A DNA stretch of 64,000 bases, from the NCBI RefSeq assembly GCF_057098645.1, contig NZ_CM169472.1; one strand, written 5' to 3'. The first letter of the stretch is position 1. Each line of letters opens with the position of its first letter. Position numbers and translations under genes: made by a program. The notes beneath the pieces were generated by a model. The model was given only the letters and a program-made list of their open reading frames with translations, searched no databases and had not been told where the DNA came from. Positions 3,241 to 10,442 of this stretch are shown here, in pieces.

Positions 3241-3530
3241 GCCGGATGCGGCGTAAACGCCTTATCAGGCCTACGGCTCGGTTTGTAGGCCTGATAAGAC
3301 GCGCCAGCGTCGCATCAGGCTCCGGGTGCCGGATGCAGCGTGAACGCCTTATCCGGCCTACGACTCGGATTTGTAGGCCTGATAAGACGCGCCAGCGTCG
3401 CATCAGGCTCCGGGTGCCGGATGCAGCGTGAACGCCTTATCCGGCCTACGACTCGGATTTGTAGGCCTGATAAGACGCGCCAGCGTCGCATCAGGCACAG
3501 GATGCGGCGTAAAATGCCTTATCCGGCATT
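3241..3530. repeat. BIME/REP array: three tandem ~88-bp units of inverted REP palindromes in the nrdA-nrdB intergenic region
   Basis: Units start near 3241, 3327 and 3415; each has GCCGGATGC(A/G)GCGT(A/G)AACGCCTTATCCGGCCTAC followed by GTAGGCCTGATAAGACGCGCCAGCGTCGCATCAGGC. Confidence 0.85.
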
Positions 3531-3552
3531 AAACTCCCAACAGGACACACTC

Positions 3553-4683
3553 ATGGCATATACCACCTTTTCACAGACGAAAAATGATCAGCTCAAAGAA
3601 CCGATGTTCTTTGGTCAGCCGGTCAACGTGGCTCGCTACGATCAGCAAAAATATGACATCTTCGAAAAGCTGATCGAAAAGCAGCTCTCTTTCTTCTGGC
3701 GTCCGGAAGAAGTTGACGTTTCTCGTGACCGTATCGATTACCAGGCGCTGCCTGAACACGAAAAACACATTTTTATCAGCAACCTGAAATACCAGACGTT
3801 GCTCGATTCAATTCAGGGTCGTAGCCCGAACGTGGCACTGCTGCCGCTGATCTCGATCCCGGAACTGGAAACCTGGGTAGAAACCTGGGCGTTCTCAGAA
3901 ACGATTCATTCCCGTTCCTATACTCATATCATTCGTAATATCGTTAACGATCCGTCAGTTGTGTTTGACGATATCGTCACCAACGAGCAGATCCAGAAAC
4001 GTGCGGAAGGGATCTCCAGCTACTACGATGAGCTGATCGAAATGACCAGCTACTGGCACCTGCTGGGCGAAGGCACCCACACTGTTAACGGTAAAACCGT
4101 GACCGTTAGCCTGCGCGAGCTGAAGAAAAAACTGTATCTCTGCCTGATGAGCGTTAACGCGCTGGAAGCGATCCGCTTCTACGTCAGCTTTGCTTGTTCC
4201 TTTGCCTTTGCAGAACGCGAACTGATGGAAGGTAACGCCAAAATTATTCGCCTGATTGCCCGCGACGAAGCCCTGCACCTGACCGGTACTCAGCATATGC
4301 TGAATCTGCTGCGCAGCGGTGCGGATGATCCGGAGATGGCGGAAATTGCCGAAGAATGTAAGCAGGAATGCTATGACCTGTTTGTCCAGGCGGCACAGCA
4401 AGAGAAAGACTGGGCGGATTATCTGTTCCGTGACGGTTCGATGATTGGTCTGAATAAAGACATTCTCTGCCAGTACGTTGAATATATCACCAATATCCGC
4501 ATGCAGGCAGTCGGTTTGGATCTGCCGTTCCAGACGCGCTCCAACCCGATCCCGTGGATCAACACCTGGCTGGTGTCTGATAACGTGCAGGTTGCTCCGC
4601 AGGAAGTGGAAGTCAGTTCTTATCTGGTCGGGCAGATTGACTCGGAAGTGGACACCGACGATTTGAGTAACTTCCAGCTCTGA
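3553..4683 (+). CDS. nrdB: Ribonucleoside-diphosphate reductase 1, beta subunit
   Basis: ATG at 3553 gives [37 protein letters not shown]..., 376 aa; the longer ORF-track call from 3340 reads through the REP array and is not used. Confidence 0.95.
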
Positions 4684-4937
4684 TGGCTAGCGTTACCCTG
4701 CGCATCACTGGCACACAACTGCTGTGCCAGGATGAACACCCTTCCCTTCTGGCGGCGCTGGAATCCCACAATGTGGCGGTTGAGTACCAGTGCCGCGAAG
4801 GTTACTGCGGCTCCTGTCGCACCCGACTGGTCGCAGGCCAGGTGGACTGGATTGCCGAACCGTTAGCTTTTATTCAGCCGGGGGAAATTTTGCCCTGTTG
4901 TTGCCGGGCAAAAGGCGATATTGAAATCGAGTTGTGA
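4683..4937 (+). CDS. yfaE: 2Fe-2S ferredoxin YfaE (supports NrdB cofactor maintenance)
   Basis: 84-aa ORF with CxxxxCxxC...C pattern (CREGYCGSCRTRLV...PCCC); start ATG shares one nucleotide with the nrdB stop (TGATG). Confidence 0.9.
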   Translation: MASVTLRITGTQLLCQDEHPSLLAALESHNVAVEYQCREGYCGSCRTRLVAGQVDWIAEPLAFIQPGEILPCCCRAKGDIEIEL

Positions 4938-4948
4938 TCGGGTACTAG

Positions 4949-4985
4949 CGCCAGATACGACGCTTACGCGTATTATCTGGCCTAC
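4949..4985. repeat. REP-like palindrome between convergent yfaE and inaA
   Basis: GCCAGATACGACGCTTACGCGTATTATCTGGCCTAC: inverted repeat GCCAGATA/TATCTGGC with REP-like tail. Confidence 0.5.
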
Positions 4986-4990
4986 AACGA

Positions 4991-5641
4991 TTACATGGCG
5001 TAGTAATACGCTTTTACCTGCTCCCAGTCCGCTTTGGGGATCGGCTCCAGATATTTTTCCAGCTGGCGGAAGTCATGATTAATCGCTTTATCGCGACGCA
5101 AGCGGCGACGACTTTTCTCCAGATCAAGAAAACCAGCTTCTGCCTTACCTTCTGTTTTCACATAGATATGGCGAACATAACAACAGCCATGCTGACGATT
5201 AATGCTATGCATTTTCTTAAACGCCAGCGCCACTGCTTTCAACATGGCTTGCCGTACTTCGTCAGAATAAGGCGATACTGCATGCTGGGCATACCAGTCA
5301 GCAATGCTGATGAACCCCGCCATATCTTCAGTCACCAGCAACGCGCGCCATTCCCCCTCAATTTTCACCGCTTCACCAAAAACGATCTTCGGCACGATGA
5401 CACCGGCCCGTTCCAGTTCTTTAATTACCGCAACCTCACGGACAATCGTTGGTCGGCCGAAAGGATAACGTACGGAATGAAACAGATGATGCGTCATGCG
5501 CTTTACATATAGCTTTTTGCCGTTGCGCTCGACGCATTGCACCCCGCTCATACCATTACGGCGATAGTTAGGCTCTTCAACCCAGTCGCCCTCTGTTGCC
5601 CACCAGTGATTAAATTCGTCGTGCTTTGCTGAAACTGCCAT
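4991..5641 (-). CDS. inaA: Acid-inducible Kdo/WaaP-family lipopolysaccharide kinase InaA
   Basis: 216-aa ORF MAVSAKHDEFNHWWATEGDWVEEPNYRRNGMSGVQCVERNGKKLYVKRM...; recognised as InaA. Confidence 0.9.
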   Translation of the reverse strand: MAVSAKHDEFNHWWATEGDWVEEPNYRRNGMSGVQCVERNGKKLYVKRMTHHLFHSVRYPFGRPTIVREVAVIKELERAGVIVPKIVFGEAVKIEGEWRALLVTEDMAGFISIADWYAQHAVSPYSDEVRQAMLKAVALAFKKMHSINRQHGCCYVRHIYVKTEGKAEAGFLDLEKSRRRLRRDKAINHDFRQLEKYLEPIPKADWEQVKAYYYAM

Positions 5642-5721
5642 ACCCTATCGCCTGTCATTTTTTATTAACGACAATGACTATAGGTGGTTACCTGCGAAAA
5701 ATCTTAATGAAACGTGTCGTA

Positions 5722-6912
5722 TTAATGAATTTCTTTTGCCACTACTAGCGCGACACCGCTTTTACCCTTCATTTGCAGCGCATAGACTCCACCAGCCACT
5801 ACCACTAATAGTGCGCCCAGCAGATAAATCATTTGGTAGCCAGTATGTGCAACCATCATCCCCATCACACAGGCTCCCAGCGCCAGGCCTGCATCCATCG
5901 CATTGAAGAAGAGGGAGTTTGCGACACCGATTTTATGCGGTTCCACTGAACTGATAATCTGCGTCTGAAAAACTGGCGTCACGGAACCATACCCGATACC
6001 AATCAACGCGCCAGAAACGACCATCATTACGCTGCCCTGGGTGTAGCCGAGAACCACCAGCCCAACCGTAAAGAACAGCAGGCAGGGGTAAACCACATAT
6101 TTCGGGCCTTTTTTGTCGCAAACATTGCCGGTGAAGGTACGGCAGATCATCAGGAAGATGGCGTAGCAGAGCAGGAAATTACTGGCCGCCGACATCAGAT
6201 TAAGTTCGCGGGCGTAAAGCGCCAGAAAGGCAGAAACCCCGGCATACGAAAAGGTCATAAAGAATGTAACCATGGCAAACGGCAATGCCGCGCGATCGAA
6301 CATGGCGGCGAAGCCCATCTTTGGCTTTGAACCGTCGGCATGGCTGATAACCGGCGGCACGGTCATAATCAGCGACAGGATAATCCCCACCGCCGCAACG
6401 CCAGTACATAACCAGAAAGCCATATTAAAGGCCTCCCAGCGCGCCATATTCAGGCCAATCCACGGCCCGACCACCATTGCCAGCCCCATTGCCAGAGAGA
6501 AAAAACTGATGCCCTCCCCACGTCGGGAGGCCGGGATCAGCCGCGCGGAAATCGTTCCCTTTACCGTTGTGATAACCCCGAAGGTAATACCATGAAGCAC
6601 CCTAATAAAAAGCAGTGATTCTATTGAGTGGCAAAAAGGATACAGCGCAGTGACCACCAAAAAGGCCAGAGAAGAGAGCACCAGAATAGTTTTATTCGAA
6701 TATTTACTCACCCATTGCCCGGCAAAGGGTCGAATAACAATCGCCGCAATTAAAAATAAAGTCACCAGCAGACCAGCTTTATCAGGGGATGCCTGGAGAC
6801 GATCGGAGATATAAATAGGTAATAAGGTCAGCAACACATAAAAGACGAAAAAGATAATAAAGCTAATAATGGTGATTGCCCAAAAATCTTTCGTCCATAA
6901 TTTTTCTTTCAT
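5722..6912 (-). CDS. Major facilitator superfamily transporter (12-TM-like, uncharacterised substrate)
   Basis: Hydrophobic multi-span protein; start set at MKEKLWTKDF (internal to the 416-aa ORF-track call) because the helical region begins there; divergent from a LysR regulator. Confidence 0.8.
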   Translation of the reverse strand: MKEKLWTKDFWAITIISFIIFFVFYVLLTLLPIYISDRLQASPDKAGLLVTLFLIAAIVIRPFAGQWVSKYSNKTILVLSSLAFLVVTALYPFCHSIESLLFIRVLHGITFGVITTVKGTISARLIPASRRGEGISFFSLAMGLAMVVGPWIGLNMARWEAFNMAFWLCTGVAAVGIILSLIMTVPPVISHADGSKPKMGFAAMFDRAALPFAMVTFFMTFSYAGVSAFLALYARELNLMSAASNFLLCYAIFLMICRTFTGNVCDKKGPKYVVYPCLLFFTVGLVVLGYTQGSVMMVVSGALIGIGYGSVTPVFQTQIISSVEPHKIGVANSLFFNAMDAGLALGACVMGMMVAHTGYQMIYLLGALLVVVAGGVYALQMKGKSGVALVVAKEIH

Positions 6913-7076
6913 ACTAAACGACCCGTTCAAATGGCGCACAAGGACACCGCTCAGCATCACAGGCTGAACCACTACAGGTGCGTCAAAATGTGATTTACTC
7001 GATAGAAATAGAGTATAAATGGATGCACTCTATAAGAGAAATTAATCGTTTTAATCATATTAATTAGATATTACTA

Positions 7077-7955
7077 ATGACACTAACCCAAATCCACACC
7101 CTGCTCGCCGTACTGGATTATGGCGGCTTTACCGAAGCCAGTAAGCGCCTGTTTATGACGCAATCCGCCGTAAGCCAGGCCATTGCCACCCTGGAGCAAG
7201 AGCTTGGCGTAGAGATCCTGATCCGCGAGCGGCGAAAAGCACTGCAGCTGACTGACGCCGGCTCACGCATCGCAAGCCATCTGCGGGCGATTACCCGTGA
7301 AGTGAACGCTGTGAAAGAAATTGCCGAGCAGGAAAAACATAACCCGACCAGAACGCTGCGCATCGGCTGCTTTCCCAGCGCCTGCGCGTGTATTTTACCG
7401 GGTATTATTCGCTATTTTGAAACTTATCATCCGCAGATAAAAATCATTCCTTACGAAGAGAACAGCAGTGAAATTATTGATTCGGTGCAAAACGAAACTA
7501 TCGATGCCGGTTTTGTCCATTTTCCGGTAACCGGAATGTATTCCGTCCCGGTATATCAGGATAAATTTACCGTGGTGCTGCCAGATGCTCATCCCCTGGC
7601 AAAAAATAACGCTATATCGGTGGAAGAACTGGTGGGAGAACCGCTCATTATCAGTAAGGGGCGTTATGAATTAAGCATTATGGCGTTATTTAAGGAAAAG
7701 AATATTACGCCGGTCATTAAATATGAATTTAACCATCCAGATACGGCAATAAGTTTTATTCGCCAGGGATTAGGAATTGCTCTGTTACCGGAGCTGACGC
7801 TGAAAGCCGTCGCCGGTGAGTTATGCTCTGTCCCGCTGGAGCCGACGTTTTATCGGCAAATTTCATTGCTGGTCAAAGAGGCGCCGGTAGAAGGCAGCCC
7901 ATTGTTTTTATTGCAAATGTGTATGGAAACCCTGGTGGTCAAAGGCATATTGTGA
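7077..7955 (+). CDS. LysR-family transcriptional regulator (intact; occupies the position of the K-12 yfaH pseudogene)
   Basis: 292-aa ORF with typical LysR N-terminal HTH (...FTEASKRLFMTQSAVSQAIATLEQELGVEIL...) and co-inducer domain; divergent from the MFS gene. Confidence 0.8.
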   Translation: MTLTQIHTLLAVLDYGGFTEASKRLFMTQSAVSQAIATLEQELGVEILIRERRKALQLTDAGSRIASHLRAITREVNAVKEIAEQEKHNPTRTLRIGCFPSACACILPGIIRYFETYHPQIKIIPYEENSSEIIDSVQNETIDAGFVHFPVTGMYSVPVYQDKFTVVLPDAHPLAKNNAISVEELVGEPLIISKGRYELSIMALFKEKNITPVIKYEFNHPDTAISFIRQGLGIALLPELTLKAVAGELCSVPLEPTFYRQISLLVKEAPVEGSPLFLLQMCMETLVVKGIL

Positions 7956-7958
7956 AAA

Positions 7959-7992
7959 GGGCATCCGGTCAGGTTTTGCCTTCCCGGATGCC
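7959..7992. terminator. Hairpin (GGCATCCGG...CCGGATGCC) between convergent LysR gene and glpQ
   Basis: 9-bp inverted repeat with ~15-nt loop immediately after the LysR stop and before the glpQ stop. Confidence 0.4.
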
Positions 7993-7999
7993 TGTGTCA

Positions 8000-9079
8000 T
8001 TAATTATCTTTATGCAGGAATTTAACCGCTTTATCAGGGAAATCAGTAAACAACCCATTTACACCCGCTTTGTTATATAGAGCATCATATAACTGATTCA
8101 CATCAGTTGTGTATTCAGGCAGTTTATCTGACCGCACGGTATAAGGATGCACTACCAGCTTGTTCTGCTGAGCATCTTGCACCATGCCAGTGAGTTTGAT
8201 ATTACCCGGCTGCGATGTCTCCTCAATCAACATATGGTAATCCGGACCAATACCATCTGCATATTCCGCCACCTGTTTCATGACACCCGGCTTAAACATC
8301 CAGTCGTAGTTGTAATTAACCCAGCTTCCATCCGGCTGTTTCTGCTGCGTTTCATTCCAGTCGGTATAGGCAATCAGCTGTACCAGATTGAGATCCATGC
8401 CCATTTTGGGTTCCAGCTCATTCTTAATACGCTTCAGCTCATCAGCATCAAAACATTGCAAATAAACTTTATCGTCTTTACCGGTGTAACCATATTTCTT
8501 CAGCACTTCCAGCGTTTTTGCCGCAATATCCTTCCCTTCCTGATGATGGAACCACGGCGCTTTGATTTCTGGATAGATACCGATATTTTTCCCGGTAGAG
8601 TGATTTAACCCCTGAACAAATTCAATCTCTTCTTCAAAGGTGTGCACCCGGAAGTCGGACTTACCCATTGGGAAACGCCCTGGATAAGTCTGCACTTTTT
8701 TACCGTTTTCAATATCGAAACCTTCGGTAAATTTCAACGACTTAATTTCATCCAGAGTGAAATCTATCGCGTAGTAACGACCGTCTTTGCGCGCCCGATC
8801 CGGGAAACGATCGGCAACATCAGTAACACGATCGAGGTAATGGTCATGCAGAACAACCAGATGGTCGTCTTTGGTCATCACCAAATCCTGTTCCAGATAA
8901 TCCGCTCCCTGCGCATACGCCATCGCTTTTGCTGGCAGCGTATGCTCCGGCAAATATCCACTGGCACCGCGATGGGCGATGACTATTTTTTCGTTGCTGT
9001 CCGCCGCCATTGCACTGCTTCCCATGACTATAGTGCTCATCATGATCGCCATGCTAAGGTTTTTCAGCGTCAATTTCAT
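8000..9079 (-). CDS. glpQ: Periplasmic glycerophosphodiester phosphodiesterase
   Basis: Start at MKLTLKNLSMAIMMSTIVMGSSAMAADSNEKIVIAHRGASGYLPEHT... (signal peptide + GDPD domain); the ORF-track call extends 19 codons upstream. Confidence 0.95.
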   Translation of the reverse strand: MKLTLKNLSMAIMMSTIVMGSSAMAADSNEKIVIAHRGASGYLPEHTLPAKAMAYAQGADYLEQDLVMTKDDHLVVLHDHYLDRVTDVADRFPDRARKDGRYYAIDFTLDEIKSLKFTEGFDIENGKKVQTYPGRFPMGKSDFRVHTFEEEIEFVQGLNHSTGKNIGIYPEIKAPWFHHQEGKDIAAKTLEVLKKYGYTGKDDKVYLQCFDADELKRIKNELEPKMGMDLNLVQLIAYTDWNETQQKQPDGSWVNYNYDWMFKPGVMKQVAEYADGIGPDYHMLIEETSQPGNIKLTGMVQDAQQNKLVVHPYTVRSDKLPEYTTDVNQLYDALYNKAGVNGLFTDFPDKAVKFLHKDN

Positions 9080-9083
9080 GCCA

Positions 9084-10442
9084 TTAGCCTCCGTTGCGTT
9101 TTTGCAGTAATTCCTGATGGCGACGTTTTTCGCCAATCATCACAACAATCAACAAGATAACCGCCAGAATGCTGCCGCCAATCATTACCATAAAGCCGCC
9201 ATCCCAGCCGAAGAAGTCCACGGTGTAGCCAACAATCGCGCTCGCCGCCACCGAACCGCCCAGGTAACCAAACAGACCGGTAAAGCCCGCTGCCGTTCCT
9301 GCCGCTTTTTTCGGTGCCAGTTCCAGCGCATGCAGACCGATCAGCATCACAGGGCCGTAGATCAGGAAGCCGATAACAATCATACAAATCATATCGACGG
9401 TTGGGTTACCTGCCGGGTTCATCCAGTAAACGATAGTCGCGATGGTCACCAGTGTCATAAAGAAAACGCCGGTTGCCCCACGGTTGCCACGGAAGACTTT
9501 ATCCGACATCCAGCCGCACAGCAGGGTGCCCGGAATACCCGCATACTCATAGAAGAAGTAGGCCCAGGAGGATTTATCCAGCGCGAAATGCTTAACCTCT
9601 TTCAGATAAGTCGGTGACCAGTCGAGGATGCCGTAACGCAGCAGATAAACGAACACGTTGGCGATGGCGATGTACCACAACAGTTTGTTCGGCAGCACGT
9701 ACTGCATGAAGATTTGCTTCGCGGTCAGCTCCTGTTCCGCTTTTTCGTTATAGTCGTCCGGATAATCATTTTTGTACTCTTCGATCGGCGGCAAGCCACA
9801 GGATTGCGGGGTATCGCGCATCATCGCAAAGGCGAATAATGCCACCAGAATGGCGCAGAAAGCGGGCATATAGAGCGCCGCGTGCCAGTCATTGAACCAG
9901 GCCATCCCCAGCAGGAACAGCAGCGGCGGAATACCACCACCGACGTTGTGCGCACAGTTCCACACTGACACAATGCCGCCACGTTCTTTCTGCGACCACC
10001 AGTGCACCATAGTACGACCGCATGGCGGCCACCCCATCCCCTGGAACCAACCGCAGAGGAACAACAGTACAAACATAACCGCAATGCTCGACGTCGCCCA
10101 TGGCACAAAGCCCATAAACAACATCACTGCCGCCGCCAGAATCAAACCTGCGGGCAGGAAAACGCGCGGATTCGAGCGATCCGATACCGAACCCATGATG
10201 AATTTCGAAAATCCATAGGCGATCGAGATCCCAGAAAGCGCAAAACCTAAATCACCGCGTGAGAATCCCTGCTCCACCAGGTAAGGCATAGCGAGCGCAA
10301 AGTTCTTACGAACCAAATAGTAAGCAGCATAGCCAAAGAATATCCCCAGGAAAATTTGCCAGCGCAATCGACGATAAGTCGGATCGATCTCCGCGGCAGG
10401 TAAGCGCGCTTTGTGTGGCGCTGGTTTAAAAATACTCAACAT
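9084..10442 (-). CDS. glpT: Glycerol-3-phosphate:phosphate antiporter
   Basis: 452-aa MFS protein [48 protein letters not shown]...; immediately upstream of glpQ in the same operon. Confidence 0.95.

Follow-up and report, generated by a model that had tools for sequence, protein, structure and literature searches.

The MFS-LysR gene pair and its neighbours

Between inaA and glpQ, the window (the whole 64,000-nucleotide stretch of DNA analysed) carries a transporter gene of the major facilitator superfamily (MFS) and a LysR-type regulator gene in divergent, head-to-head orientation. nrdB and yfaE lie upstream and glpT downstream of this interval. The features of the region are as follows.

4991-5641, minus strand: inaA, one neighbour of the gene pair
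5722-6912, minus strand: MFS transporter gene, 396 aa, WP_000660233-like (RefSeq)
5829-7715: 1.9-kb segment missing in K-12-type strains (alignment junction 5828 / 7716)
6768-8015: 'W' recombination tract, ~1.25 kb, comprising MFS codons 1-48, the spacer, LysR, the 44 bp between LysR and glpQ, and the final codons of glpQ
6913-7076: divergent control region, 164 bp, 37% GC
6979-6994: second conserved spacer block, TGCGTCAAAATGTGAT, nearer the MFS gene, with TGTGAT invariant (19-locus alignment)
7041-7055: candidate LysR binding site, a perfect dyad ATTAA-N5-TTAAT of the T-N11-A type (19-locus spacer alignment)
7077-7955, plus strand: LysR-type regulator gene, 292 aa, divergent 'W' allele, WP_000176730
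7959-7993: strong hairpin in the LysR-glpQ spacer, -27.8 kcal/mol, z -5.5
8000-9079, minus strand: glpQ, the other neighbour of the gene pair

An earlier note, made from the letters alone, had described a full-length MFS transporter on the minus strand and a 292-aa LysR regulator on the plus strand, divergent between inaA and glpQ; the open reading frames, RefSeq, Pfam and ortholog lengths all agree with that description, and its ~165-bp AT-rich shared spacer measured 164 bp at 37% GC. The minus-strand reading frame is listed as 5722-6972, giving 416 aa if an upstream GTG is counted; in RefSeq and in all orthologs the start is the ATG at 6912, and the protein begins MKEKLW. At 396 and 292 aa the two proteins have the same lengths as their Salmonella and Citrobacter orthologs, and comparison with orthologs disclosed no frameshift, premature stop or other inactivating lesion in either gene. 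Positions 4991-9136 match E. coli O145 RM9872 at 4145 of 4146 nucleotides, the sole mismatch being at 6012, so the DNA comes from that strain or one almost identical to it.

Remnant and null alleles in E. coli

The same note had stated that K-12 has only a LysR-family remnant at this site. Alignment with the K-12 MG1655 inaA-glpQ interval upheld this, and showed that the remnant of LysR, a 243-bp 3' end (yfaH), abuts a 105-bp 3' end of the MFS gene, with the deletion junction placed at 5828 / 7716. Both breakpoints bear the 8-bp direct repeat CAGATAAA in the sequence of the common E. coli allele, so the 1.9-kb loss looks like a microhomology-mediated deletion between these repeats. The K-12 locus thus occupies the same site, and yfaH corresponds to the last ~80 codons of the common allele of this LysR gene, whereas in the window both genes are complete and LysR has 83-85% protein and about 75% DNA identity to the remnant. 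The K-12 YfaH model NF007272 (PRK09729, 68 aa) aligns to LysR residues 226-290 with E 7.5e-40; the score of 134.9 bits falls just under the 139-bit cut-off because the W allele has diverged, though the homology is clear.

Loss extends well beyond K-12. Among 5,426 complete E. coli genomes, the region was kept (at least 80% of it present) in 1,214-1,215 (about 22%), only a K-12-type remnant was found in about 3,149 (about 58%), and 1,057 (about 19.5%) carry a null allele, inaA and glpQ being linked by an unrelated 107-bp filler. Together the three states cover 5,420 of the 5,426. K-12 and about 78% of strains are therefore without the pair, contrary to the possibility that the intact form is the usual one. 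Some otherwise full-length copies are interrupted by IS1 or IS5 elements or carry a frameshift, on both allele backgrounds. The extra O157-type gene matched no Pfam, NCBIfam or PADLOC family. Such repeated loss and disruption in E. coli shows that the module is dispensable in many niches.

Ancestry of the module at its chromosomal site

Synteny was examined by scanning one genome per species, followed by tblastn of the neighbours. The order yfaE-(inaA)-MFS/LysR-glpQ recurs in E. coli, Escherichia sp. MOD1-EC7003, Escherichia sp. E1V33, E. whittamii, Salmonella (arizonae and diarizonae) and several Citrobacter species, and in E. albertii without inaA. In Klebsiella spallanzanii, Kluyvera and Pseudocitrobacter, yfaE-MFS/LysR is followed by reading frames of glpA, glpB and glpC size, and no dedicated enzyme partner lies beside the pair in these three genera. 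The MFS protein is 83-86% identical across genera and LysR 66-80%. The orthologs in Salmonella, Citrobacter, the Klebsiella oxytoca group and Kluyvera, which are likewise uncharacterised, share gene order, lengths, site and operator block with the pair described here, but most of these genera lack inaA in the interval, and in Klebsiella and Kluyvera glpQ/glpT is not adjacent. Because the same site is occupied in Escherichia, Salmonella, Citrobacter, Klebsiella and Kluyvera, the comparison supports an ancestral module, old and vertically placed between nrdAB-yfaE(-inaA) and the glp genes, with the K-12 state as a secondary loss.

Codon comparisons show both genes to be evolving under purifying selection; for the MFS gene against other Escherichia, dN/dS is about 0.07. 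This bears on the idea that E. coli retains the module only as a dispensable relic heading to loss, its intact state being without present selective value and its regulation irrelevant. Consistent with a relic are the roughly 78% of complete genomes without the module, the existence of two independent loss alleles, the IS1 and IS5 insertions and the frameshift on both allele backgrounds, and truncated copies in Salmonella too. On the other hand, dN/dS values are low, 0.04-0.07 in comparisons between species and 0.06-0.18 in those within E. coli, the operator and the gene lengths are conserved across genera, and an imported allele (see below) has spread nearly unchanged to unrelated E. coli with short E. 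coli flanks, which is easier to understand if it is useful. We regard a relic as improbable.

Replacement of the regulator half by a divergent allele

Against the O157-like strain L003, identity is 99-100% through inaA and the MFS body, drops abruptly from position 6768 and recovers after 8015. Within these limits, the W tract has about 76% nucleotide identity to the common E. coli allele, and its divergence from all Escherichia alleles sampled is about 24%; at its glpQ end the GlpQ C-terminus changes from NKE* to HKDN*. By the Nei-Gojobori method, MFS codons 60-396 have an identity of 0.997 and a dS of 0.00 to the common E. coli allele, and inaA and glpQ are likewise near-identical to it (glpQ comparisons with Salmonella and Citrobacter, misaligned by indels, were left out of the dN/dS analysis). 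For LysR, W versus common allele gave a nucleotide identity of 0.76, dN 0.10 and dS about 2.3, the dS being saturated and the depth of the W lineage only roughly known; for the tract, dS is about 2 and dN/dS about 0.04.

The common LysR allele lies at a dS of 0.21 from MOD1-EC7003 and 0.66-0.83 from E. whittamii and E1V33, values that match those of inaA and MFS; since its dS follows the species tree as theirs does, it is taken as the native allele. In bootstrapped neighbour-joining trees (protein, or codon positions 1+2), the sampled Escherichia alleles, including that of E. albertii, excluded W in 100% of bootstraps, and W was sister to them in 93%. The spacer behaves similarly. It is 164 bp long in W, 159-161 bp in Salmonella and Citrobacter and 151 bp in all sampled Escherichia, and W retains a segment found in the Salmonella and Citrobacter spacers; its identity is 80-83% to Salmonella as against about 70% to Escherichia.

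Because the tract is ~24% diverged from every sampled Escherichia allele while its flanks are 99-100% E. coli, the regulator half is, by these comparisons, a xenologous replacement and not an inheritance, and only the MFS gene body is native E. coli. The earlier note's view that this strain keeps an ancestral module is accordingly right for the most part: the module is ancestral at the site across genera and the MFS body is native, but the MFS 5' end, the spacer and LysR have been replaced.

Spread and origin of the W tract

About 107 complete genomes carry the W tract, at 99.7-100% identity and with identical edges in each. The carriers are diverse: O145:H28, O169:H41 and O125ac:H10 are among them, as are numerous strains with small genomes from humans, animals and the environment. 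Up to position 6568, O169:H41 has another E. coli allele of the MFS body, and beyond that point its sequence is window-like, which indicates that the tract has moved between E. coli backgrounds with short flanks. Copies in unrelated strains differ by ≤0.3%, against 2-5% variation within E. coli for the native allele and the MFS body, and this low diversity within the tract speaks for import in the fairly recent past and against an old balanced polymorphism.

Searches for a donor were negative throughout. Among 100,044 GTDB species representatives there was none, the best match being 87% at the amino acid level; in a 5.8-billion-protein collection the W cluster bears only E. coli names, the next match is 84% and nothing outside exceeds 87%; plasmids yielded just 76-79% matches, on chromosome-like records; and a wobble-tolerant pattern found two metagenome contigs, both of them E. 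coli across the flanks. This failure across all four sources, together with the fact that every named carrier is E. coli, speaks for the view that W is no import at all but either a segment that evolves fast locally or an ancient E. coli allele maintained by balancing selection over a long time. Internal diversity would, however, be expected of an old balanced allele, and the W copies are at most 0.3% apart where the native allele and MFS body vary by 2-5%. Moreover, the species tree is reflected in the common allele (dS 0.2 to MOD1-EC7003, 0.7-0.8 to E. whittamii and E1V33) but not in W; a saturated dS with low dN excludes simple fast evolution; and the edges of the block are sharp. We consider an origin within E. 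coli very unlikely, and retain import as the explanation.

As to the source, W may tentatively be viewed as the sole sequenced trace of an unsampled enterobacterial lineage that branched before E. coli, E. albertii and the cryptic Escherichia clades had their common ancestor, the spread of the tract through unrelated E. coli backgrounds being due to selection for an effector-retuned regulator. We hold this to be possible but not the likelier case; if true, the changed effector response would re-tune the timing of exporter switch-on.

The LysR protein and its predicted operator

The regulator has an HTH_1 domain at residues 3-62 (Pfam, E 6e-19) and a LysR_substrate domain at 89-268 (E 1e-35), which in a protein of 292 aa is the architecture of LysR-type transcriptional regulators (LTTRs). 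The layout is also that of an LTTR, with a divergent neighbour gene and, in the control region between the two, a T-N11-A dyad. The protein scored below the NCBIfam cut-off for all 25 of the named LTTR equivalogs listed (GltC, AlsR, CidR, CynR, HcaR, CysB, OxyR and others), the best score being for GltC, 126.6 bits against a cut-off of 350.

The spacer alignment, of 19 loci from about seven genera, shows the dyad to be invariant across genera while the remaining spacer is variable. The dyad sits inside a nearly invariant block, AGAGAAATTAATCGTTTTAAT, and is single-copy in the window; it occupies the stretch 22-36 bp ahead of the LysR start codon, at 129-143 bp from that of the MFS gene. The TGCGTCAAAATGTGAT block may serve the MFS gene as a promoter element or as an activation site. 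A sigma-70 promoter and terminator consensus scan of 5600-8100 gave five promoter-like sites against 4.2 expected by chance, so that no start could be assigned from it; the lone sigma-70 match in the spacer is on the minus strand, has its -10 element at 7054-7059 and overlaps the dyad. Were this match real, its position over the dyad would point to the MFS gene being repressed, not activated. Beyond the pair's other end, the 7959-7993 hairpin is probably a bidirectional terminator of the convergent LysR and glpQ transcripts. An Rfam search of 4900-9200 returned just one sub-threshold naRNA4/REP-like match, which lies outside the gene pair.

The W and native LysR proteins differ at 46 amino acids, nine of them in residues 1-65 and 33 in the effector-binding domain. 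Since the imported and native alleles have nearly the same operator and recognition helix, and most of the differences (33 of 46) fall in the effector domain, the allele swap has probably kept the regulatory wiring, and may have altered the response to ligand.

The MFS protein and its likely transport function

The transporter matches MFS_1 (PF07690) over residues 14-346 with E 5.5e-46, with a second match at 213-375, and its hydropathy peaks merge into 12 hydrophobic segments. We sought motif A as G-x3-D/S-R/K-x-G-x-R/K and the antiporter motif C as G-x3-G-P-x2-G-G. A motif A-like sequence, GQWVSKYSNK, occupies residues 65-74 in loop 2-3 and has a second copy, GNVCDKKGPK, at 262-271; TM4 has a motif B-like RVLHG; and TM5 (GLAMVVGPWIG) has the GP and next G of motif C with the spacing of the first G off, a partial match only. 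The MFS_1 profile over both six-helix halves, the 12 segments and motif A place the protein in the MFS superfamily.

Its subfamily is less clear. The best NCBIfam matches, over residues 10-381, were PRK05122 and PRK12382 (YfcJ/YhhS-type), then the staphylopine exporter CntE, with E-values of 1.8e-32, 9e-25 and 2e-21 and scores of 112 (112.5), 87 (87.3) and 77 bits against cut-offs of 374, 364 and 235. The protein thus lies outside the YfcJ/YhhS families as curated, and because every other NCBIfam match was also far under its curated cut-off, any subfamily assignment is weak. The homology search that the earlier note had proposed accordingly yielded a superfamily and exporter-like neighbours, but no named subfamily. 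Although YfcJ/YhhS-type permeases and CntE are the top-scoring families across almost the whole length, scores this low set the protein apart in a separate, unnamed subfamily.

The nearest curated families are exporters, namely the YfcJ/YhhS type, CntE, and multidrug and sugar efflux proteins. So are the nearest solved structures. NorA, the DHA1 multidrug efflux pump of S. aureus, matches over the N-terminal six helices (E 2e-14), but identity is low and the C-terminal half of the MFS protein has no significant match to NorA. SotB, an E. coli sugar efflux protein, matches over its full length at E 3e-5, with low identity. As the best families and structures are exporters and no enzyme gene accompanies the pair in any genus, we favour a proton-coupled exporter of a metabolite or toxin over an uptake system, at odds somewhat better than even.

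An uptake function would make the permease a nutrient symporter and LysR a substrate-responsive activator of an uptake or catabolic route, with no efflux involved. LysR regulators do often activate uptake or catabolic genes, and the weaker NCBIfam matches include aromatic acid:H+ symporters and galactonate, lactate and 3-hydroxyphenylpropionate transporters, and among PDB entries there is a weak match to SfMCT, an L-lactate transporter. Set against this, no catabolic enzyme gene lies beside the pair in any genus examined, the neighbours being always core genes (yfaE or inaA to one side, glpQ or glpA to the other), and the top family and structure matches are exporters. Uptake therefore seems unlikely, though less so than the relic interpretation.

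A proposed working of the module

E. coli has several divergent LysR-exporter pairs, among them PunR-PunC (ydhB-ydhC), AaeR-aaeXAB and ArgP-argO. These share with the present locus a head-to-head LysR gene and exporter gene, a short AT-rich spacer and a T-N11-A dyad near the regulator start; they differ in that the LysR protein here has no detectable orthology to named LysR equivalogs. Judged by gene layout and profile matches, the architecture is that of a standard divergent LysR-exporter pair, and its two proteins are unnamed members of the MFS and LysR kinds.

Because established LysR-type regulators act in this way, the following scheme can be proposed. A predicted LysR tetramer would bind the invariant dyad at 7041-7055, just upstream of its own start codon, and in doing so would repress its own transcription. 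Together with a small-molecule co-inducer, LysR would activate the MFS promoter on the opposite strand, and the MFS protein, as a proton-coupled DHA1-like exporter, would remove the co-inducer compound or a related metabolite. We put the probability of the whole explanation, an old enterobacterial LysR-MFS module with its regulator half replaced and with a LysR-controlled exporter, at about 0.6.

The searchable literature held nothing on substrate, transport direction or regulation, and its only mentions of yfaH are as an uncharacterised gene or as a neutral site for a marker. STM2280 and STM2281, which we take to be the Salmonella locus tags of the pair, gave no match there, and the RefSeq names of both proteins are generic.

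Biological significance

These results do not overturn current understanding, as similar uncharacterised LysR-MFS pairs and K-12 deletions are common. Presence/absence polymorphism of the genes is ordinary accessory-gene variation, and a short import for which no donor turned up is a modest curiosity. What the locus does supply is the intact form of a K-12 pseudogene locus, comprising yfaH and an unannotated MFS stub, and with it a regulator-transporter module that is conserved across enteric genera yet polymorphic in E. coli, where it exists in four main states. Those four states make a handy natural knock-out series for finding the substrate. The allelic replacement of the regulator only, from an unnamed donor, is a tidy case of short-tract import at roughly genus-level divergence, and the W and common alleles could be used to test whether a swap of the LysR effector domain changes induction of an unchanged target.

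Absence, insertion and disruption at the inaA–glpQ locus

Three features of the locus differ among E. coli genomes or among species, at these positions:

Null allele: positions 1251-1357 of the equivalent locus in E. coli GPEC128-620 (L005), corresponding to window 5741-8006
O157-type insertion: positions 3453-5209 of the equivalent locus in the O157-like E. coli strain 272 (L003), its site corresponding to window ~7956-8000
inaA: window 4991-5641, compared with loci L010-L020, L022 and L031

Among the 5,426 complete E. coli genomes surveyed, 1,057 carried a null allele, having neither the MFS gene nor the LysR gene; inaA is instead joined to glpQ by a 107-bp filler, which does not clearly resemble either the module or the loci of other species. 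The O157-type insertion, found in 1,053 of the 5,426 genomes, places 1.76 kb of 34% GC DNA between the LysR gene and glpQ. Inside it lies an orphan gene (WP_001301786) encoding 356 aa rich in Lys and Asn, for which Pfam, NCBIfam and PADLOC gave no match; some copies of this gene are frameshifted or interrupted by IS1. The insertion also coexists with the K-12-type deletion, as seen in locus L006.

The imported tract that defines the divergent allele reaches into glpQ, where it changes the GlpQ C-terminus (window 8000-8015) from NKE* to HKDN*, so that the protein has 359 aa rather than 358; this change is common to all carriers of the allele. On the same background, IS1 and IS5 insertions in E. 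coli EF7-18-51 (L029) and 2017.06.04CC (L030) independently destroyed the 5' part of the LysR gene, the MFS gene, or both. The LysR gene is frameshifted in E. coli O125ac:H10 strain C 236-04A (L028).

The upstream side

A mechanically called nrdB ORF (window 3340-4683) runs ~70 codons further upstream, to a GTG; the annotated 376-aa nrdB starts downstream of this GTG, and the extension was rejected as an ORF-calling artefact. In the yfaE-inaA spacer, Rfam gives a weak match (window 4907-4982, plus strand) to the REP-derived nucleoid-associated RNA naRNA4, scoring 28.9 bits where the gathering score is 59.5 (E 0.026); the match probably reflects no more than a REP element.

E. coli, E. whittamii, Escherichia sp. 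E1V33, MOD1-EC7003 and Pseudocitrobacter have inaA between yfaE and the MFS gene, and E. albertii, Salmonella, Citrobacter, Klebsiella and Kluyvera lack it there, so the placement of inaA is variable too.
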